Assembly (NCBI RefSeq): GCF_988243305.1 | Contig: NZ_OZ547136.1 | Reading direction: 5' to 3' (one strand) | DNA: 64,000 nt | Shown here: in pieces, positions 106 to 22,560 of the stretch | Layout of the letters: the number at the start of each line of letters is the position of its first letter | How positions within the stretch are numbered: position 1 is the stretch's first letter | Made by a program: the position numbers and the translations under genes | The notes under the pieces: model-generated | Databases searched by the model: none | What the model was told of the DNA's origin: nothing | The model's input: the letters and a program-made list of their open reading frames with translations, nothing else

Positions 106-588
106 TTACGCATTTTTGTTTGTGGTCAATACAAAATCTTCCAGAAGTTGCTGGCGTTCGCGCTTTCCCCACCAGGTCAACATCCTGGCCATTAATGGCC
201 AGTCAAGTACGGGTTCGGCGTGAGTAAGTAATCGACGTAACTGGACCATATCGGCTGTTCTGTCAGCCCGAATTAATTGAAAGATACGGCGCTCGTTAAT
301 TCTTCCACTATTGGCTAAAGCTCTTCCCAACGAGATACCTGTTGTTTGCTCCGGTTTTTTGTCCTGATGTCGGATGACATTCTTTCCTGCGCTCAGGCAA
401 AACACCATGCGCAAAAGAGCCTGCTGGTGACGTGGGTTTTCCCAACCAAAAGGTTGCACCAACCGATAAAACGCAGGGATATCGCGTAATTCATCAGGTT
501 CTGAAACACGTCTAATTTGCGCACATGCTCCATTATCCAGTTGTTGCCAGGCTCGATATAAAGCCATTGCATCAATTTCATCAGCCAT
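106..588 (-). CDS. casB: CasB/Cse2, Cascade small subunit (160 aa)
   Basis: ORF track 106..588 (-), 160 aa, the recalled length of E. coli CasB; 8-bp overlap with casA end, typical operon coupling. Confidence 0.9.
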   Translation of the reverse strand: MADEIDAMALYRAWQQLDNGACAQIRRVSEPDELRDIPAFYRLVQPFGWENPRHQQALLRMVFCLSAGKNVIRHQDKKPEQTTGISLGRALANSGRINERRIFQLIRADRTADMVQLRRLLTHAEPVLDWPLMARMLTWWGKRERQQLLEDFVLTTNKNA

Positions 589-2089
589 TTGATGGCCCTC
601 CTTGCGGTTTTAACTCCCGTAAATGTTTGTATAGCGTGGCGCGGGCAAGCGCTAATGTGCTTATTAATTTAGGATGATGTGCATAGGGAGCTACAGATTG
701 ATTAAATAGCATTTCACACAATTGATGAAGTTTGTCTCGTAAATCAGCTATTACCTCATCAGCCTGGGAAAAATTAATTTTCGCCAATACATCTGGAATT
801 AATAATTCACTCTGTCGATAGAAATGCCTTTCTGCAGTCTCATGAACAGAGACTCCGGCCCCTTTGAAGTCTTTATTTTTAAACCCTTCTGCAAAGGTAT
901 ATAACGCCTTGCGTAAGGCTGTTTTATACCCCAAACCAACAGTCACTATTTCGTTTATAACATTGCCGTATTGTTGCCACCCCTGATTAAACATCAGCAC
1001 ATCATGACGTCGTTCAAGAATAGATGCTTGATTATTACGATATCCCCCCATAATCAATTCAAGAGGACTTTGCGGCGCAATATTTCTGAATTGATTCACA
1101 ACCGCCGCCACGCGATTTCCATTTTCATTTTGAATAATCTTATCTACCACAACTCGGCTGATTTGCGTCCATGATGGTGCGGAGGTGGTGAAAGCAAGAA
1201 ATTTTTCCTCAACCTTCCCTTTCTTGACTGTTACCAGACAAGGGGAATGCGGATGGGGCCATAGTCCATTAACTGTAAAGGTAAATTTTTCCTTAAGAAA
1301 ACCGGTATAACGCAAATTGCTTTCCTGTCCACAGCAAGAACATTTACCAATCCCAATGGGATCGCATAGTTCAATATGCGCTGGTTGCCAGAATAAACCA
1401 CGGACAAACCCAATTGACGAAGCTGGCACAGATTCATTGGGCTTGATAGGCTTAATCCAGGTAGGTTGGTTTTCCGTATGTAATTCATTGGGAAATTGTT
1501 TTTGAAGACGAGGTATTGTGAGGACATTGAGTAATACCGTCGAGCGAAGATCGATCCCACATACGAAGGTGGTTATAGGTGTTCCTCCACGTAAACCGCT
1601 TTTAAAGCCACCACCAAAACCAGGTGCCTGATTCGCCTGGTTGAATAACGCAATCGCAGTGCATCCACCACATAATGCTTCACCCTGCCCCGGTTGATTG
1701 ACAAATGCACAATTCGTCGCGCCGCTTACCCCAGCCAACAGTTTTTCCATTGGAGTCACATCATTTGCTTTGACACCTTTGGTCTGCATAAAGGGATGTT
1801 CTGCGTGATTAAGGTAGAACATATCTATCCACGGCGCGATGAGTTGTTGAAACTCATCTTCAGTGAGCGGATTCATTATGCGATGTCGAAATTCAACGTC
1901 ATCTTTTGCCGGGGCGATAATTTGTCCAATGCAAACCAGCAGTGCTAAAGCGGCCAGTTCCATATCGTCACGGGGCAAACTTAATCGCCACTGATCTCTA
2001 CTGCAGTATAGCGATTGCAGATTTAGGATTTGGACTTTCCCCCCGTTTCGCGGGCGTACAGGGATCCAGTTATCAATAAGCAAATTCAT
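581..2089 (-). CDS. casA: CasA/Cse1, Cascade large subunit (502 aa)
   Basis: ORF track 581..2089 (-), 502 aa starting MNLLIDNWIPVRPRNGGKVQILNLQSL; length and position between cas3 and casB fit type I-E. Confidence 0.9.
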   Translation of the reverse strand: MNLLIDNWIPVRPRNGGKVQILNLQSLYCSRDQWRLSLPRDDMELAALALLVCIGQIIAPAKDDVEFRHRIMNPLTEDEFQQLIAPWIDMFYLNHAEHPFMQTKGVKANDVTPMEKLLAGVSGATNCAFVNQPGQGEALCGGCTAIALFNQANQAPGFGGGFKSGLRGGTPITTFVCGIDLRSTVLLNVLTIPRLQKQFPNELHTENQPTWIKPIKPNESVPASSIGFVRGLFWQPAHIELCDPIGIGKCSCCGQESNLRYTGFLKEKFTFTVNGLWPHPHSPCLVTVKKGKVEEKFLAFTTSAPSWTQISRVVVDKIIQNENGNRVAAVVNQFRNIAPQSPLELIMGGYRNNQASILERRHDVLMFNQGWQQYGNVINEIVTVGLGYKTALRKALYTFAEGFKNKDFKGAGVSVHETAERHFYRQSELLIPDVLAKINFSQADEVIADLRDKLHQLCEMLFNQSVAPYAHHPKLISTLALARATLYKHLRELKPQGGPSNG

Positions 2090-2504
2090 TTGTTCTCCTT
2101 CATATGCTCCGACATTTCTCCTGCATTTCTATACGTCGGAACACTTCCGTTATCGGTAAAAACAAAGAAAAAATACGGCGTAATTAATTCAATAATCACA
2201 TTCACTGCAAAAATATATTCATTGGTTTAATACAATTAACCTATGCATATATTAAGATGTGTTGAATTGTTTAAAGACAATAATGCATGCATTTCAAATC
2301 TGCAAGTTATTCGTTTTATTATCAAAGAAATTTTTTAGTTATAATAATTACCATAAATTTTATTACATAAAATATTCATACTGTGAATATAAAATCTCAT
2401 ACCGGGAAATTAAAAGAAGATGTACATTGTGCACCTTCCCTACTTAAGTAGGGATAAACCGTTATTGGTCTTGTTATCGTCATTGATACCAATCATTCCC
2501 GAAG
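2090..2504. promoter_or_regulatory. AT-rich cas3-casA intergenic region, expected site of the Cascade operon promoter (H-NS silenced, LeuO activated in E. coli)
   Basis: About 415 bp of strongly AT-rich, curved-looking DNA (runs such as ttattatcaaagaaattttttagttataataattaccataaattttattacataaaatattcatactgtgaatataaaat) directly upstream of casA; promoter identity is from established knowledge of the locus, exact -10/-35 not determined. Confidence 0.5.
2436..2461 (+). repeat. Solitary CRISPR-repeat-like palindrome (TTCCCTACTTAAGTAGGGATAAACCG) 44 bp downstream of cas3 stop
   Basis: Shares 5-prime TTCCC and 3-prime GGGATAAACCG with the I-E repeat GAGTTCCCCGCGCCAGCGGGGATAAACCG; central 16-bp perfect palindrome CCCTACTTAAGTAGGG replaces the repeat stem. 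Confidence 0.45.
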
Positions 2505-5171
2505 TTATTTGGGATTTGCAGGGATGACTCTGGTCATCCCTTCATCCCGAGTGTAGGTAATAACAATATTATTACCCTGCCAGATCCATCCATCCTGATT
2601 CTGTTTCCCTTCCAGCCAAAGTAACCCATCTTCATCTACTACTTCAGAAAAACTACGTTTCCAGGTGAAGGGTACATTGACGCGATTAAGTGCTAACGCC
2701 TCATACTGCTGTTCATGACTTAGGTCCTCGTAGACCTGGCCATCGAGCAGTTGTTTACCTGAAGACGTTTGTACATAAGGCAATAATGGCAGGCTCATTT
2801 CCCCATCCCTCGTTACCGCAAGAATGGTTTCATCGTTATCCTGCAAGCTATATTCTTCAGCCCACTGCAGAACCTTACGAGCCTTGAACCTTTTTTCACA
2901 CTCGGCGCTTTCAAACTTATCCATGCCTTTGATGACCCATTCTGGCTCATCCATTTCCGCATCATCGTAAATGCTATCCAGCCATTGCCGGTAGGCATCA
3001 GGGAAAAATAAGGATGCTCCATTAAGTTCCTCAATATGTTGCTGCGTCCGCCACATGACTCTAACGTTGCTATAAATATGCTCATGTCGTCCGTAACCTT
3101 CGCCATCAGGCAGCAAAATGGTGGCAAGAGGAATCTCAAAACCAACGGGGCGATATTTACGATGATGGCGATGTAAACGGCCCAATCGTTGGAAAAGCAA
3201 ATCTGCGGGACAATGCTGAGTAATTAACCAATCAAAATCAACGTCGAGTGATTGTTCCACGACCTGTGTGGCAACAAGTATTCTTCCAACATTTCGCTCC
3301 CCATTTTTCCCAAAATTACTAATAACACGATTCTCTTTTTCACGGCGATCGTTCAGCGTAAAGCGCGCATGAAACAAATCTATATCTACTTGCGTGTTAT
3401 TTAGTTCCTTTAACCGTTGGTGGCATAGTTGTGCAACATCAACCAAATTGCAGATAAGACAGACTTGTGCACCCGCATTTGCCGCTGCGATCATTCGCTC
3501 TAACATCGTAAGGTCAGGTAACATGTCAGCTAAATAAATAGGTTCTGGCTGAATCGAAAAGCGGGGCGGGAGTTGTTCTGGATGAGCTAACAGATCAAAA
3601 CGTTGCGCACCATTCACACCTCGCCAGTTAATGAGTGGATATGCGGAGTTATTTTCCTCTGGATCTGTATGCAGACCATAAGTATCCAGAAGTTTCTGTT
3701 TTTGTTTCATTGGTAGAGTTGCGGAAAGAAGAATAACACTCCCCCCCACATCAGCCTGAGCCTTGAGCACAGCCTCCAGCAAGCCGTTCATATACGTGTC
3801 GTAAGCATGAACTTCATCAACAATTAAAACACTTCGACCAATTCCCAAACCACGGATAAAGCGGTGTTTAACTGGCAATACCGATATCAACACCTGATCA
3901 ATCGTGCAAACGCCTATTTGCCCAAGAAACACTTTCTTATTGCTTTGTGACAACCATTGGCAACACTGAACCCACGCTTCTTCTTGCCCCTGCTCAGTAA
4001 ATGCGCGTGATTTTATTGATTGAAAAAGGTGGTTAAAACGTGAATTACCATGAGCAAGAATAAGATTTGGGGAGGTAAATAAACGGCTCGCGTTCGCTTC
4101 CATTCTGCTGAGCATTGCATTTGCAGTAGCTTGTGTAGGGAGGGCAAAAATAACACTATCCGCAAGTTGTTGGTCAATAAGTTTCCAGGCATAGGCCAGC
4201 GCTGTTTCGGTTTTACCTGATCCCGTAGGTGCCTCAATCACCGTCAGCCCGGGAGCTGTAGGAAGAGCATCAACCAACACCTGTAATTGTCTTGGTTGAT
4301 AGCCATTGTCCAGTAAGGCATGTACGCCGTCATAACTACGCTTATTTGATACAAGGCCACTCAACTCAAGTACCCGACACGCATCCTGTTGTCTATCCTG
4401 AAAATATTTTCTTAGCGCTTGTATGCCTGAAGGTGCATCTTCTTTGAATAGAAAGGTATCCGTTGTGGTCCAGGAACCTAACCAGTCAGCAAGCGAGCAA
4501 AAACCTGCTAACAATGATGAACAATCAGGTGGTATATCGTTTATAGATAACCCGGCTGGTGTTAAAAATAATGCTTCGAGTACAGATATCCACTCCTCAC
4601 GAGCCTGTTTATCTTGCGCAGCATAAGATGCCAGAGAAGCTGGCATTTCCCAACGCGACTTATCTTGATCCTGGGAATGTAATATAAAACCATGATGTCC
4701 TGTAACGGCCTCTACCCAAGGAAACCAGGACTCATAAGGATGAGGAGCGGCATCAAAAAAACTGAAAAAATCCCCGGGAGATTGCTCTGAAAGTGAATCC
4801 TGGTTAAACCAATACAGACCGGCTGCACCATGATTAAATTTACGGCACATTTGTGTTGATGGACCATTAAGTGATGGCGTTGCAGGATTTAATTTCAGCC
4901 AACTTTCTGCTGATTTATATTGGAATCGTATATCAAACTTTCCGATATCATGAAGGGCAATGAAAAATAACAGCCAGGCTTTCACCTTCTGTTTTGATAG
5001 CATTTCATTTCGGCAAAAAGCATTTTGTAGTACGACTGATTGATCCCACCAGCAATCTGCAACAGCTGCAACATCCAGGCAATGATAAATCAACAGATGA
5101 ATATCATTTCCTTTCGTCAGGCTTTTTGAGGATTTCCCCCAGTAATGACATATATATTTAAAAGGTTCCAT
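2505..5171 (-). CDS. cas3: Cas3 HD-nuclease/SF2 helicase (888 aa)
   Basis: ORF 888 aa; HD motif (ALHDIGKFD), Walker A (APTGSGKTE) and DEVH box (VDEVHAYD) visible in translation. Confidence 0.95.
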   Translation of the reverse strand: MEPFKYICHYWGKSSKSLTKGNDIHLLIYHCLDVAAVADCWWDQSVVLQNAFCRNEMLSKQKVKAWLLFFIALHDIGKFDIRFQYKSAESWLKLNPATPSLNGPSTQMCRKFNHGAAGLYWFNQDSLSEQSPGDFFSFFDAAPHPYESWFPWVEAVTGHHGFILHSQDQDKSRWEMPASLASYAAQDKQAREEWISVLEALFLTPAGLSINDIPPDCSSLLAGFCSLADWLGSWTTTDTFLFKEDAPSGIQALRKYFQDRQQDACRVLELSGLVSNKRSYDGVHALLDNGYQPRQLQVLVDALPTAPGLTVIEAPTGSGKTETALAYAWKLIDQQLADSVIFALPTQATANAMLSRMEANASRLFTSPNLILAHGNSRFNHLFQSIKSRAFTEQGQEEAWVQCCQWLSQSNKKVFLGQIGVCTIDQVLISVLPVKHRFIRGLGIGRSVLIVDEVHAYDTYMNGLLEAVLKAQADVGGSVILLSATLPMKQKQKLLDTYGLHTDPEENNSAYPLINWRGVNGAQRFDLLAHPEQLPPRFSIQPEPIYLADMLPDLTMLERMIAAANAGAQVCLICNLVDVAQLCHQRLKELNNTQVDIDLFHARFTLNDRREKENRVISNFGKNGERNVGRILVATQVVEQSLDVDFDWLITQHCPADLLFQRLGRLHRHHRKYRPVGFEIPLATILLPDGEGYGRHEHIYSNVRVMWRTQQHIEELNGASLFFPDAYRQWLDSIYDDAEMDEPEWVIKGMDKFESAECEKRFKARKVLQWAEEYSLQDNDETILAVTRDGEMSLPLLPYVQTSSGKQLLDGQVYEDLSHEQQYEALALNRVNVPFTWKRSFSEVVDEDGLLWLEGKQNQDGWIWQGNNIVITYTRDEGMTRVIPANPK

Positions 5172-5470
5172 TAATAGCCTCCCTGTTTTTTTAGTATTAT
5201 CGATGATATCAGTGGACTATTTTTCGATGCTGCTCATAAATATCGAATTACAGTGATATACACATGTCTTGCCTCCCTGCAAAGAAGAGACTAACATTCG
5301 AATTGCTTAGGTTCGAACGCTGGCCTCAGGTTGATAGAAATATCGCCTGGGGCTTTTGTCCATCTGGAACCTCGCGAATGCTTAACGCCAGACAGCCTCA
5401 AGCACCCAACGCCATTCTATACCTGATAATTCTTCCAGCGGCGTTCACGTTTAAAATCAGGAATGCTGCT

Positions 5471-5512
5471 CGCAAAATAAAAACGCCCCCATCATTTCTG
5501 ACAGAGGCGTTT
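5471..5512 (-). terminator. Putative rho-independent terminator downstream of cysH
   Basis: Inverted repeat aaacgcc...ggcgttt followed on the minus strand by a U-rich run (plus strand cgcaaaataaaa); located just past cysH stop. Confidence 0.4.
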
Positions 5513-5529
5513 AATTTATCCGGCAATAT

Positions 5530-6264
5530 TTACCCTTCGTGTAACCCACATTCTCTTTTTAAGCCAAAGAAACGCGTTTCTTCTTCCGCCATGCCGGGTT
5601 CCCATTTACGGGTTGTATGGGTATCACCGACCGATAAATATCCTTCATCCCATAATGGGTGATATTTCAGGCCATGTTTTTGCAGGTACTGATAAATAGT
5701 TCGGTTATCCCAGTCGATAATCGGCAGCACTTTAAATACGCCACGCTGAATTGCCAGCACCGGTAAATTGGCGCGGCTGCCGGATTGTTCACGGCGCAGG
5801 CCAGCAAACCAGGTTTGCGCATTCAGTTCTTTCAGCGCCCGGTTCATCGGTTCGACTTTGTTGATGTCATTGTACTTTTCAATGCCTTCAACGCCCTGCT
5901 CCCATAGTTTACCGTAGCGTGCTTCCTGCCAGGCGGCGCTTTCGGTAGCGCGGTACACTTTCAGGTTGAGCTTGAGTTTGTCCGTTAACTCGTCAATAAA
6001 GCGGTAGGTTTCCGGGAACAAGTAACCCGTATCGGTGAGGATCACTGGAATATCCGGGCGAATCTGATTCACCAGATGCAGGCTCACCGCCGCCTGAATG
6101 CCAAAGCTGGAAGAAAGTACATATTCACCGGGCAGATTATCCAGCGCCCAGGCAACGCGGCCTTCAGCGTCCAGTTTTTCCAGTTCGGCGTTAGTTTCCG
6201 CCAGCGCCAGAATGCGATCTACCTTCGGCAGTTCGTTCAGGGCGTTTAGATCGAGTTTGGACAT
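5530..6264 (-). CDS. cysH: Phosphoadenosine phosphosulfate (PAPS) reductase (244 aa)
   Basis: Internal Met of ORF 5530..6417 gives [23 protein letters not shown]..., 244 aa; the longer ORF start would run through the REP element, so the shorter start is used. Confidence 0.92.
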
Positions 6265-8050: not shown

Positions 8051-9849
8051 TAGTAGACATCTCGCTGATAACGGCGCTCTACGCGCAGCTCACTTAAAAA
8101 TTCATCCGCCGCTTCGGTGTCCATGCCACCAAATTCGGCAATCACTTCCAGAAGTGCCTGCTCAACATCTTTCGCCATGCGATTAGCGTCGCCGCAGACA
8201 TAAATGTGGGCACCGTCATTGATCCAGCGCCACAGCTCCGCGCCCTGTTCGCGCAGTTTGTCTTGTACATAAACTTTTTCTTTTTGGTCGCGCGACCAGG
8301 CAAGATCGATGCGGCTCAATACGCCTTCTTTCACGTAGCGCTGCCACTCCACCTGGTAGAGGAAATCTTCCGTAAAGTGCGGGTTGCCAAAGAACAACCA
8401 GTTTTTACCCGGCGCTTCGTCAGCGGCGCGCTGCTGCATAAAGGCGCGGAACGGCGCGATGCCGGTGCCTGGGCCAATCATAATCACCGGGGTTTCTGGG
8501 TTGGCTGGCAGGCGGAAGTTGTCGTTATGTTCGATAAATACGCGGACTTCGCCCTCTTCTTCCACGCGGTCCGCGAGGAAGCTGGAGGCACCACCGGCAC
8601 GGGCGCGGCCTTCCACGTCGTAACGCACCACACCAACGGTAACGTGCACTTCGTTCTCGACTTCCGCCTGCGAGGAGGCGATGGAATACAGGCGCGGGGT
8701 CAGCGGGCGCAACAGGTTAATCAGCGCTTCGGCATCCAGTTGCGCCGGAGAGAAACGCACCATGTCGACAATCGGCGTGGTCGCGGCGTAATGCTGTAAC
8801 TTCGCTTTATCGCCCACCAGCGGCAGCAGCGTTTCGCTGCGGGTAAGCGTGGCATAGTTCTCAACAATGTTGGCGGTGTTGACGGTCAGTTCGAAGTGCC
8901 ACTGTAGCGCTTCGTTCAGAGGCAACGTTTTGCCCTCGACGGTGACAGGTTCATCACCTTTCAGCCACAGCAGTTCGACAAGTTCTTTCACCAGTGCCGG
9001 ATCGTTCTGATACCAGACGCCCAGCGCGTCACCCGGCTGGTAACGCAGGCCCGAGTCACCTAAGTCAATTTCGATATGGCGAACGTCTTTTTCAGAGTTA
9101 CGCCCGGTAATTTTCTGGTTAACAGAGAGGCTCGCCACCAGCGGCGCGTCTTTGCTGTACGGGCTGGTGTGGATTTCATTTACCGCGCCAGTAGCGACGG
9201 ATTGCGAAGGTGCCGCGACAGGCGCACGCGATTTAAGCGCATCAACCACGCGGGCGCGCCACTCGATGGCAGCAGCCTGGTATTCAACGTCGGCATCGAC
9301 ACGGTCGAGCAGGCGTTCACCGCCCAGTTCCGCCAGCTTGCTGTCAAAATCTTTCCCGGACTGGCAGAAAAATTCATAAGAGCTATCGCCGAGGCTAAAC
9401 ACGGCAAATGCGGTGTTTTCCAGCTTCGGCGCTTTTTTGGAGAACAGGAACTTATGCAGCGCGACGGCTTCTTCCGGCGGTTCCCCTTCTCCTTGCGTTG
9501 ACGTCACCACGATAAGCAGTTTTTCGCTGGCGATTTGTTTGAATTTATAGTCGCCCGCGTTCACCAGCTTAACGTTCAGTTTTGCCGCCAATAAATCATC
9601 GCGTAACGCTTCAGCAACCCGGCGCGCATTGCCGGTTTGTGAAGCGGAGATAATAGTTATACCCGGCATTTCTGCGGCGGGCGCTGGCGTCGCTGCAAGC
9701 GCAGCTGGCTGCTGGTTGAGCACGCCCCAGAAATAGCCAGAAACCCAGGCAAGCTGGGTGGGAGTTAAATCGGTCGTGGCCGCCTGAAGGCGTGCCAGTT
9801 GCTCCGGGTTCAACGGAAGCAACGCGGAAGGTGGGACCTGTGTCGTCAT
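8050..9849 (-). CDS. cysJ: Sulfite reductase flavoprotein alpha subunit (599 aa)
   Basis: 599 aa ORF with flavodoxin-like N-terminal and FAD/NADPH reductase C-terminal regions; ends ...RYQRDVY. Confidence 0.95.
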
Positions 9850-10607: not shown

Positions 10608-11879
10608 ATGGAAGACGACTGCGACATTATTATTATTGGTGCCGGTATTGCAGGCACCGCTTGCGCGTTACGCTGCGCGCGAGCGGGTTTATCCGTTTTG
10701 TTACTCGAACGCGCTGAAATCCCCGGCAGCAAAAATCTTTCCGGCGGGCGGTTATATACCCATGCACTCGCGGAACTCCTCCCGCAGTTTCACCTGACCG
10801 CGCCTCTTGAACGACGCATCACTCACGAAATCCTTTCCCTGTTAACGCCGGATGGCGCAACGACGTTTTCCAGCTTACAGCCCAGCGGTGAATCCTGGAG
10901 TGTATTACGTGCACGCTTCGATCCGTGGCTGGTTGCCGAAGCTGAAAAAGAAGGTGTCGAATGCATCCCTGGTGCGACGGTGGATGCGCTGTATGAAGAA
11001 AACGGCAGGGTGTGTGGTGTCATTTGTGGTGACGATATTCTCCGCGCCCGTTATGTGGTGCTGGCAGAAGGTGCCAACAGCGTCCTGGCTGAGCGTCACG
11101 GGTTAGTGACTCGTCCTGCTGGCGAAGCGATGGCGTTGGGGATCAAAGAAGTGCTGTCGCTGGAAACATCCGCTATTGAAGAACGTTTTCATCTGGAGAA
11201 TAACGAAGGCGCAGCGTTGCTGTTCAGCGGCGGGATCTGTGATGACTTACCCGGCGGCGCATTTCTTTATACTAATCAACAAACGCTCTCGTTAGGGATT
11301 GTTTGCCCGCTCTCTTCACTTACGCAAAGTCGTGTTCCGGCAAGCGAGCTGCTGGCTCGCTTTAAAACGCATCCGGCAGTGCGCCCGCTTATCAAAAACA
11401 CGGAATCACTGGAGTATGGTGCGCATCTGGTGCCAGAAGGTGGCTTACACAGTATGCCGATGCAATACGCCGGTAACGGCTGGCTGCTGGTGGGCGATGC
11501 GTTGCGCAGTTGCGTCAATACCGGAATTTCCGTGCGCGGCATGGATATGGCGCTAACTGGCGCGCAGGCGGCGGCACAAACGCTGATAAGCGCCTGCCAG
11601 CACCGCGAGCCGCAAAATCTGTTTGCGCTTTATCATCACAACGTCGAGCGCAGCCTGCTATGGGATGTTCTACAACGTTATCAGCATGTTCCGGCGCTTT
11701 TGCAACGCCCTGGATGGTACCGTGCGTGGCCTGCGTTAATGCAGGATATTTCCCGCGATTTATGGGATCAGGGTGATAAACCTGTTCCACCGCTGCGCCA
11801 GTTATTCTGGCGTCATTTACGTCGTCACGGCCTGTGGCATCTGGCGGGCGATGTTATCAGGAGTCTGCGATGTCTGTAG
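10608..11879 (+). CDS. ygcN: FAD-dependent oxidoreductase, FixC/ETF-quinone oxidoreductase-like (423 aa)
   Basis: N-terminal dinucleotide-binding fold DIIIIGAGIAGTACALRCARAGLSVLLLER; start taken at MEDDCD. Confidence 0.85.
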   Translation: MEDDCDIIIIGAGIAGTACALRCARAGLSVLLLERAEIPGSKNLSGGRLYTHALAELLPQFHLTAPLERRITHEILSLLTPDGATTFSSLQPSGESWSVLRARFDPWLVAEAEKEGVECIPGATVDALYEENGRVCGVICGDDILRARYVVLAEGANSVLAERHGLVTRPAGEAMALGIKEVLSLETSAIEERFHLENNEGAALLFSGGICDDLPGGAFLYTNQQTLSLGIVCPLSSLTQSRVPASELLARFKTHPAVRPLIKNTESLEYGAHLVPEGGLHSMPMQYAGNGWLLVGDALRSCVNTGISVRGMDMALTGAQAAAQTLISACQHREPQNLFALYHHNVERSLLWDVLQRYQHVPALLQRPGWYRAWPALMQDISRDLWDQGDKPVPPLRQLFWRHLRRHGLWHLAGDVIRSLRCL

Positions 11880-21324: not shown

Positions 21325-21370
21325 GTGAGGAAGGCCGGGCGGGAAACTGCCCGGCCTGAACATACCTGAA

Positions 21371-21508
21371 TGGTTATCCCCGCTGACGTGGGGAACATAA
21401 GTTCGACAACTTAAAAAATGATAACAAGTCCGGTTTATCCCCGCTGATGCAGGGAACATAATAAAAACTTTAACTAGTTCGGTTTATCCCTGTTGTTACA
21501 AGGAATAT
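21371..21508 (-). CRISPR. Degenerate CRISPR remnant: 3 decayed type I-E repeats with 32-bp and 20-bp spacers
   Basis: Plus-strand repeats tggttatccccgctgacgtggggaacat (21371-21398), cggtttatccccgctgatgcagggaacat (21431-21459), cggtttatccctgttgttacaaggaatat (21480-21508). Confidence 0.6.
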
Positions 21509-21962: not shown

Positions 21963-22418
21963 TGGTTTATCCCCGCTGGCGCGGGGAACTCCGTCAGTGT
22001 GCCAGTTGCTACTGTTTCCCATACGGTTTATCCCCGCTGACGCGGGGAACTCATCAGTGATATCCAACATTGCGGAGCTAAACGCGGTTTATCCCCGCTG
22101 GCGCGGGGAACTCTATAAATGTGCCATATACGGCGTTTGTTGCCTCGGTTTATCCCCGCTGGCGCGGGGAACTCCTCCCGGTGATGCGGGTTATGTGGCC
22201 TGCCGCCGGTTTATCCCCGCTGGCGCGGGGAACTCTTCGCCGCGTCAACAATTCGGACCTGTAAATCCGGTTTATCCCCGCTGGCGCGGGGAACTCATCC
22301 GGCGAACGCGCTACAGAGTACAGTTCACCGGTTTATCCCCGCTGGCGCGGGGAACTCGGAAACCGCCCCGGCGGTGGTTAGCTGTTTGCCGGTTTATCCC
22401 CGCTGGCGCGGGGAACTC
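21963..22418 (-). CRISPR. Type I-E CRISPR array, 8 repeats (29 bp) and 7 spacers (32 bp each)
   Basis: Plus-strand repeat cggtttatccccgctggcgcggggaactc at 21963, 22024, 22085, 22146, 22207, 22268, 22329, 22390; reverse complement is the canonical E. coli repeat, so crRNA is from the minus strand. Repeat at 21963 starts with t, repeat at 22024 has gctgAcgc. Confidence 0.95.
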
Positions 22419-22560
22419 TCTAAACATAACCTATTATTAATTAATAATTTTTTAAGCCAGTCACAATCTACCAACTTTATAGTATCACACAAACAACACA
22501 TCCATTATGTTAAAGAGCACTTAATCCATTGATTGAAAAGCTAAATATTTAAAGTAATCC
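22419..22560 (-). promoter_or_regulatory. Putative CRISPR leader (AT-rich) adjacent to the newest repeat
   Basis: AT-rich sequence tctaaacataacctattattaattaataattttttaagcc... upstream of the first repeat in the direction of transcription; degenerate repeats lie at the opposite end. Confidence 0.5.

Follow-up and report, generated by a model that had tools for sequence, protein, structure and literature searches.

How is a type I-E cas operon controlled from the short gap that separates cas3 from casA? We addressed this question for a locus at the start of the window, by which we mean the whole 64-kb stretch of DNA that was analysed. The first 12 kb of the window carry casB, casA and cas3, followed by cysH, cysI and cysJ, all of which lie on the minus strand. 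On that strand, cas3 ends with its stop codon at 2505-2507 and casA begins with its start codon at 2089-2087, which leaves a gap of 415 bp that corresponds exactly to positions 2090-2504. A 601-nt query around this block matched an E. coli chromosome with 100% identity, and the genes are annotated there as a type I-E system. The block and its neighbours are as follows.

106-588, minus strand: casB, from the open reading frames
581-2089, minus strand: casA, from the open reading frames and annotation
2095-2100, minus strand: AAGGAG, the Shine-Dalgarno sequence of casA, 5 nt ahead of its ATG (2089-2087), read from the sequence
2090-2504, no strand: cas3-casA intergenic spacer of 415 bp, homologue of the K-12 spacer, from the open reading frames, the RefSeq annotation of the identical record, GC content and sequence identity
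2150-2430, no strand: AT-rich core with 23% GC, presumed H-NS binding platform, from its composition and, for H-NS binding, from the K-12 literature
2505-5171, minus strand: cas3, 888 aa, from the open reading frames and annotation

The base composition of the block was clearly unusual. Its GC content was 29.6%, compared to 43.8% for casA, 44.0% for cas3 and 50.0% for the whole window, in agreement with the claim of an earlier note on this DNA that the gap is far more AT-rich than the flanking coding DNA. An equal or higher AT content was found in only 0.47% of all 415-bp windows. The AT-richness was concentrated in the core at 2150-2430 (23.1% GC), and both ends were of ordinary composition (44% GC at 2090-2150 and 41% at 2430-2504). 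We counted nine runs of at least four A or four T in the block. The earlier note had also described these A/T tracts as phased, which our tests did not bear out: the power of AA/TT at periods of 10-11.5 bp was equalled in 52% of dinucleotide-preserving shuffles, and a Rayleigh-type circular test on the tract centres was equalled by 20% of random placements, so that both values were within chance. The H-NS consensus TCGATAAATT was not enriched in the block either, with a single match at 2350-2359 that carried two mismatches.

The note had read the block as the H-NS-repressed, LeuO-activated Cascade promoter (Pcas) of E. coli and had proposed an alignment to the characterised Pcas region as a check. 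This alignment, to the spacer of K-12 MG1655, gave 98.2% identity over 441 nt, and K-12 primer sequences also matched the window. The two regions share their position, their flanking genes, the palindrome of LeuO site II, the candidate for site I and the candidate SlyA site. They differ at eight places in the spacer, including a 1-nt insertion at 2331-2332, and the spacer is 414 bp long in K-12 versus 415 bp here. In K-12, Pcas is silenced by H-NS and this silencing is relieved by LeuO (Pul et al. 2010; Westra et al. 2010; Fragel et al. 2019; PMC12968389), and casA/cas3 appears as an H-NS-bound "promoter island" in ChIP data (PMC3661553). Control of the cas promoter by H-NS, LeuO, CRP, SlyA and LrhA is described in reviews and primary papers. 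The high identity to K-12 and the presence of the landmarks of that region thus uphold the H-NS/LeuO reading of the block. The AT-rich block is real. Its homology to a characterised region supports reading it as an H-NS/LeuO-controlled promoter, from which it would follow that the cas operon is silent in the present strain. As such, this finding repeats what textbooks already say about the regulation of the E. coli Cascade operon and contributes nothing beyond that.

The positions of the regulatory elements in the block were then assigned as listed here.

2184-2195, minus strand: candidate SlyA site TTATTGAATTAA, whose sequence and distance agree with PMC5797941
2215-2233, no strand: candidate LeuO/LrhA site I, ATATTCA-TTGGT-TTAATAC, assigned tentatively from motif and published position
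2277-2282, minus strand: candidate Pcas -10 element TATTGT, our own reading of the sequence
2300-2305, minus strand: candidate Pcas -35 element TTGCAG, with a 17-nt spacer to the -10 element, our own reading of the sequence
2340-2345, plus strand: candidate -10 element TATAAT of an antisense promoter (anti-Pcas), from the sequence and an overlapping plus-strand promoter-like match at 2319-2348
2372-2390, no strand: core of LeuO site IIa (LeuO/LrhA site II), a 19-bp palindrome that fits the published description

Site II was recognized as a perfect 7-5-7 palindrome, ATATTCA-TACTG-TGAATAT, the only one of its kind in the block and in agreement with the LeuO site IIa core described at the cas promoter (PMC6698644). 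The related motif ATATTCA-N5-TNAATA occurred in the 64 kb only at 2215 and 2372 (0.02 occurrences expected). Published work places the two LeuO/LrhA sites at -116 to -101 and at +40 to +55 relative to the Pcas start (PMC12968389), and because of these positions we place the transcription start of Pcas on the minus strand near 2271 (±2), inside the block. The mutations of the LrhA study lie at -116, -114, -102 and -101 in site II and at +40, +42, +54 and +55 in site I (PMC12968389); if the start is set at 2270-2272, all eight fall in the half-sites of these two motifs. The TTGCAG-17-TATTGT pair has weak hexamers and scored below the threshold of a promoter scan, and it lies at the position implied by the published sites (PMC12968389). 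In K-12, the candidate SlyA site was described as lying 100 bp upstream of casA (PMC5797941). For the CRP site, the published position of -281 to -259 did not fit any single reference point, and this site is left without coordinates.

These sites bear on another explanation, in which the block would be AT-rich only because its DNA was acquired horizontally, as a "promoter island" devoid of specific regulatory architecture. Consistent with such an origin, the GC content is 44% in the cas genes versus 50% in the window, the region is listed with those promoter islands of K-12 that have been linked to foreign genes (PMC3661553), and the promoter-like hexamer pairs of the block (two, versus 3.0 expected from shuffles of the same AT-rich DNA) do not exceed what its composition predicts. 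Yet the paired LeuO/LrhA sites are unique, and the mutations and footprints published for the homologous sites of K-12 show a defined architecture (PMC6698644; PMC12968389). An explanation by composition is already contradicted by these K-12 experiments, unless their results fail to transfer to the present strain, and is very unlikely.

The block holds a further element, on the strand opposite to the cas genes. At 2433-2521 on the plus strand, we found a degenerate two-repeat mini-CRISPR that is antisense to cas and consists of two pseudo-repeats (psiR1 and psiR2) on either side of a spacer-like segment (psiS).

2433-2461, plus strand: psiR1, ACCTTCCCTACTTAAGTAGGGATAAACCG, a degenerate repeat (20/29 match) with the exact repeat 3' end GGGATAAACCG and the 7-bp stem retained
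2462-2492, plus strand: psiS, a 31-nt spacer-like segment between psiR1 and psiR2
2493-2521, plus strand: psiR2, TCATTCCCGAAGTTATTTGGGATTTGCAG, a 15/29 repeat match with the same hairpin geometry, overlapping the cas3 stop codon at 2505-2507
2520-2541, plus strand: a 9-bp hairpin just after psiR2, possible 3' end of an antisense transcript, from RNA folding

The reference for this comparison was the cognate array of the identical strain, which is made of 61-nt units with the repeat GAGTTCCCCGCGTCAGCGGGGATAAACCG and lies on the cas strand. psiR1 was the best repeat match in the window outside the arrays, at 20 of 29 positions. It contains the crRNA 5' handle ATAAACCG with all 8 nt matching, and GGGATAAACCG was limited in the window to psiR1 and the true arrays. 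The two pseudo-repeats lie on the same strand at a distance of 60 nt, versus 61 nt for the canonical unit, and psiS measures 31 nt versus 32 nt for a canonical spacer. Both share the fold of the repeat, in which a 7-bp stem with a 4-nt loop is preceded by 4 and followed by 7 unpaired nt. Base pairing is complete in the two stems of psiR1 and psiR2 (14 of 14 pairs), and in five of these pairs both partners have changed; in shifted registers, only 32-57% of the stem positions pair. An in-register 7-bp stem together with an identity of at least 15/29 was found at 5 of 125,342 positions outside the true arrays, and psiR1 and psiR2 are among these five. The fold of the 121 nt at 2425-2545 had a z-score of -4.87. 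A search of Rfam returned noise-level snoRNA matches only, and the hairpin at 2520-2541 does not have the T-run of a classical terminator. A canonical adaptive CRISPR array can be rejected for this element, given repeats that match at 20/29 and 15/29, only two units, and true arrays elsewhere. By these sequence features, the architecture of the mini-array is that of the CreR or regulatory mini-array class.

A candidate antisense promoter at a perfect TATAAT (2340-2345) would drive this mini-array. A second plus-strand promoter-like match was found at 2293-2322, and the predicted anti-Pcas start is near 2352 or near 2329. An anti-Pcas transcript of 150-200 nt that comes from just downstream of cas3 and overlaps it, with no function assigned, was reported previously (Pul et al. 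2010, as recorded in a review). From a candidate start near 2352 to the end of the hairpin at 2541, the predicted transcript measures ~190 nt, which agrees with the published size. The anti-Pcas RNA of 2010 is thus probably the precursor of the mini-array. The text of Shmakov et al. 2023 does not mention anti-Pcas or link it with the mini-array.

A regulatory guide should have a target, and psiS has a candidate in the same block.

2304-2306, plus strand: AAG PAM of the predicted psiS target, from the sequence match
2307-2323, plus strand: protospacer-like target of psiS, matched at positions 1-5, 7, 8, 10, 11 and 13-17

The mismatches between psiS and this target fall at positions 6, 9 and 12. 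In type I-E Cascade, every sixth base of the crRNA is unpaired. Counting only the positions that pair, 14 of 15 are matched here and 13 of 14 in K-12. For type I-F1, non-pairing of every sixth base is stated by Shmakov et al. 2023. The site at 2304-2323 was the best non-self match of psiS in the window and, of 128,000 positions, the only one at which a full seed match adjoins a valid PAM; none of 5000 composition-preserving shuffles of psiS scored as high within the intergenic spacer. The PAM overlaps the putative -35 hexamer of Pcas, the paired stretch spans about -36 to -52 from the proposed start and, on the plus strand, the target overlaps the -35 region of the TATAAT promoter as well as the -10 element of the match at 2293-2322. 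Cascade bound at this target would sit over the -35 regions of Pcas and anti-Pcas alike and would thereby be expected to repress its own operon.

We then looked at the conservation of these elements in seven strains that span the diversity of the intergenic spacer. psiR1, psiR2, the PAM and protospacer positions 1-16 were invariant in these strains, and 5.2% of the remaining spacer sites were variable, which gives a probability of 0.016 for finding no variable site in the 77 conserved nt. The only polymorphisms of psiS in the seven strains fell at position 12, which does not pair, and at position 28, which lies beyond the match. Compared to K-12, psiS carries G and C here at these two positions versus A and A there, protospacer position 17 is C here and T in K-12, and the 1-nt insertion mentioned above falls between the target and TATAAT.

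Of 5426 complete E. coli genomes, 1133 contain the intergenic spacer, in each case between cas3 and casA, and the region was 95-100% identical among these 1133 genomes. Since the spacer-bearing genomes are nearly identical and the relatives do not have the spacer, there is no informative divergence for a test of covariation between spacer and target. The E. coli I-E locus of the O157:H7 type has a cas3-casA gap of 97 bp with 45% GC, in which we detected no repeat-like match. A CasA scan of 100,044 species genomes gave three Methylococcaceae loci as the closest relatives outside E. coli (32-36% identity); in the two loci examined, cas3 and casA either overlap or are 61 bp apart. The AT-rich spacer with its mini-array is thus specific to the K-12-type cas lineage. 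A phage- or plasmid-borne mimic of the guide (of the Cracr type) was also sought. When phage and plasmid collections were searched by BLAST with the mini-array, only chance matches came up; a first pattern scan of viral contigs for guide mimics gave one chance match in a coding region, and a second scan gave 17 loci, none of which had a spacer matching psiS or its target.

The degeneracy of the mini-CRISPR raises the possibility that it is an inert, decaying relic of an inverted array and that the block acts through H-NS, LeuO, LrhA, CRP and SlyA on Pcas only. Several observations are compatible with decay. psiR2 matches the repeat at only 15 of 29 positions and lies partly in the cas3 coding sequence, which could account for its conservation; psiS is 1 nt short; and stand-alone repeats arise sporadically in I-E loci, as stated by Shmakov et al. 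2023. In the literature that we searched, we found no experiment on the E. coli mini-array. Moreover, IS1 insertions in two strains separate the mini-array from its presumed promoter or target, but casA is already a pseudogene in both of these strains. Under decay alone, one would expect neither the two hairpins to persist across five double substitutions nor the 8-nt 5' handle to stay exact, and the promoter site matched by the full seed next to a PAM, which shuffled spacers never reproduced, would be hard to explain. We consider the relic a serious possibility, although a doubtful one.

The plus-strand transcript could also be a conventional antisense RNA, acting on the 3' end of the cas3 mRNA or on read-through from cas3 to casA rather than as a guide for Cascade. 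The predicted transcript does cover the end of cas3, namely its final ~12 codons with the stop codon, and the published account stresses the overlap with the cas3 transcript and the folded structure of the RNA. Such a role would leave unexplained why the hairpins resemble the repeat, why they are spaced by 60 nt, why the crRNA handle is exact and why the promoter holds a PAM-flanked match, and we regard it as unlikely.

A further alternative would be an addiction module similar to CreTA, in which the product of a 35-codon plus-strand open reading frame at 2420-2527 would be a small hydrophobic toxin, and Cas6e would destroy the toxin mRNA by cutting it within psiR1 and psiR2. The frame spans the mini-array and includes a hydrophobic stretch (best 15-residue Kyte-Doolittle mean, 2.22), but prolines interrupt this segment, no convincing ribosome-binding site precedes the frame, and its product has no Pfam match. 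Moreover, K-12 strains lacking casE or the entire cas operon are routinely viable, which counts against a toxin of this kind. The type I-E element of Salmonella was, in addition, classed as stand-alone by Liu et al. 2023. This frame, the only toxin candidate seen, is unlikely to encode a toxin given that it has neither a ribosome-binding site nor a family match, and an addiction module here is hardly credible.

We thus favour the reading in which the block is a K-12-type Pcas region that combines a layer of H-NS/LeuO control with a layer of self-repression through the mini-CRISPR, and we give this combined reading a probability of roughly 85%. The first layer, H-NS and LysR-type regulators, is established for K-12 and is extended to the present strain on the strength of 98% identity. 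The second layer, a guide that the mini-CRISPR would make, is predicted in the literature for E. coli.

In the first layer, the AT-rich core would serve as an H-NS platform that silences the sigma-70 promoter Pcas of casABCDE12. LeuO and LrhA, acting at 2215-2233 and 2372-2390 on either side of Pcas, would relieve this silencing, and SlyA and CRP would also act on the promoter. In the second layer, the divergent anti-Pcas promoter would transcribe the plus strand through the mini-CRISPR at 2433-2521, and Cas6e would cut both hairpins to give a crRNA-like RNA of ~60 nt (2454-2513). Once loaded in Cascade, this guide would pair over ~14 bp at 2304-2323, a match that may allow binding and would be too short for cleavage by Cas3. 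The bound site would cover the -35 regions of Pcas and anti-Pcas. When silencing by H-NS is lifted, Cascade would then repress its own operon and probably also the promoter of the guide itself. We infer each of these steps, from anti-Pcas transcription and processing by Cas6e to 60 nt to loading into Cascade and repression without cleavage. What the present analysis establishes is the anatomy of the sequence with its statistics, its conservation and its agreement with the published site positions.

In its strongest form, the second layer would make the anti-Pcas RNA a working CreR precursor, with Cascade sitting on back-to-back -35 elements in a double negative feedback, and with an H-NS/LeuO switch and a crRNA-sensing loop interlocked within ~130 bp. 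We propose this form only tentatively and at rather less than even odds. LeuO/LrhA site II lies ~20-40 nt into the predicted CreR leader, and if the CreR reading is true, LeuO could both lift the silencing and block synthesis of the repressing guide. It would also mean that K-12, the main model for type I-E systems, carries a self-regulatory guide RNA, as predicted. The orphan anti-Pcas transcript could then be explained, and Cascade levels could be affected in the hns or LeuO-overexpressing strains used in the field.

Both parts of the combined reading, the H-NS-silenced Cascade promoter and, as a prediction, the mini-CRISPR, are already in the literature. The value of the present analysis is to prompt a simple experiment on a mini-array that was already predicted in print, rather than a discovery. 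The interpretation offered in the earlier note was incomplete, as it left out the mini-CRISPR on the antisense strand of the block and the target that this element has there.

Among the closest known systems is the element predicted by Shmakov et al. 2023 (Fig. 4B), an E. coli I-E regulatory mini-array between cas3 and cas8e that is antisense to cas3. According to that study, it has two degenerate units, the better repeat by the seed, and an AAG PAM, and its target is on an H-NS site just upstream of Pcas with a start region at LeuO/CRP sites. The description agrees with our own, independent findings at the present locus, and from it we infer that the two are the same locus.

A similar element was tested experimentally in Salmonella enterica, in contrast to the E. 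coli element, which is known here from its sequence. In that type I-E system, CreR represses the casA promoter via E. coli Cascade, and this repression is lifted by an excess of crRNA or by an anti-CRISPR protein (Liu et al. 2023). Like the element described here, the Salmonella CreR is a degenerate mini-CRISPR upstream of casA, with a psiR1 that contains the 5' handle, a psiR2 with a hairpin and a partial (~15 nt), AAG-flanked match to the casA promoter region. Its psiS starts with TAG, compared to TTA here, and the target and the cas lineage also differ. The I-B CreTA of Haloarcula hispanica and the I-F1 mini-array of Pseudomonas aeruginosa likewise use degenerate guides with partial complementarity to turn Cascade into a repressor. 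CreTA differs in having a toxin gene under the repressed promoter, and the E. coli block contains no credible toxin.

On the side of H-NS control, promoter islands and H-NS/LeuO loci such as bgl and leuO resemble the cas block in being AT-rich, in their horizontally acquired context, in their occupancy by H-NS and in the antagonism of LeuO. Unlike bgl, leuO and the promoter islands, the cas block is predicted to encode, in addition, an RNA guide for the very complex that it regulates.

Relative to K-12, the 415-bp AT-rich gap between cas3 and casA carries one extra T, at window positions 2331-2332 (AAATTTTTTAG here, AAACTTTTAG in K-12). This T falls between the predicted target, the protospacer at 2307-2323, and the candidate -10 element TATAAT at 2340-2345, and shifts the spacing by 1 nt in any plus-strand promoter located there. 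In two other E. coli strains, LR-06 and ETEC6, the same gap is interrupted by IS1, and casA contains an internal stop codon in both of these IS1-bearing strains. The insertion points have the following window equivalents:

About 2326-2334: IS1 between the protospacer and TATAAT, with a 9-bp duplication, agaaacttt.
About 2411-2419: IS1 between the LeuO palindrome and psiR1, the first degenerate repeat of the mini-array, with the duplication taaaagaag.

The mini-array itself is entirely covered by a small ORF:

2420-2527, plus strand: ORF of 35 codons, MYIVHLPYLSRDKPLLVLLSSLIPIIPEVIWDLQG.

Its mRNA would be cleaved through processing by Cas6e, the enzyme that cuts type I-E repeat hairpins. We found neither a Pfam match nor a clear ribosome-binding site for this ORF, and it is probably spurious.

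The region at 4900-5300, comprising the start of cas3 and the spacer upstream of it, is likewise AT-rich (36-39% GC in 200-nt windows); at the cas3 promoter, it may form an additional stretch sensitive to H-NS. The organization differs in the other I-E variant of E. coli, that of O157:H7 strain 3384, in which the cas3-casA gap is merely 97 bp long with 45% GC and a Hok/Gef toxin gene is annotated between cysH and cas3. In the coordinates of that strain's locus, these features are as follows:

8527-8623: cas3-casA gap.
11515-11667: Hok/Gef toxin gene.

At the equivalent place in the window (5172-5530), no intact hok ORF was found.

A second CRISPR locus was observed on the minus strand of the window, in two parts lying about 460 bp apart:

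21963-22420, minus strand: array with an AT-rich leader and eight repeats, the unit length being 61 nt.
About 21368-21506, minus strand: a short array whose three repeats are degenerate; the spacer of the first is only ~23 nt long.

Nowhere is the window more AT-rich than in the low-GC block around this locus, which reaches a minimum of 25% GC at 21451 and corresponds to the ygcE/queE 'promoter island' of K-12, which is listed there as H-NS-bound.

Degenerate I-E-like repeats also form a small array on a phage or prophage contig, IMGVR_UViG_2639762749_000010 (8540-8780, minus strand), where two copies of GTTCCTCGTGAAACGGGGATAAACCG are followed by GTTCCCCGTTTTACGGGGTTGAACC-type units, separated by short spacers. 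None of these spacers matched the window's predicted target. This array is similar to the 'Cracr' arrays that a recent preprint describes on phages.
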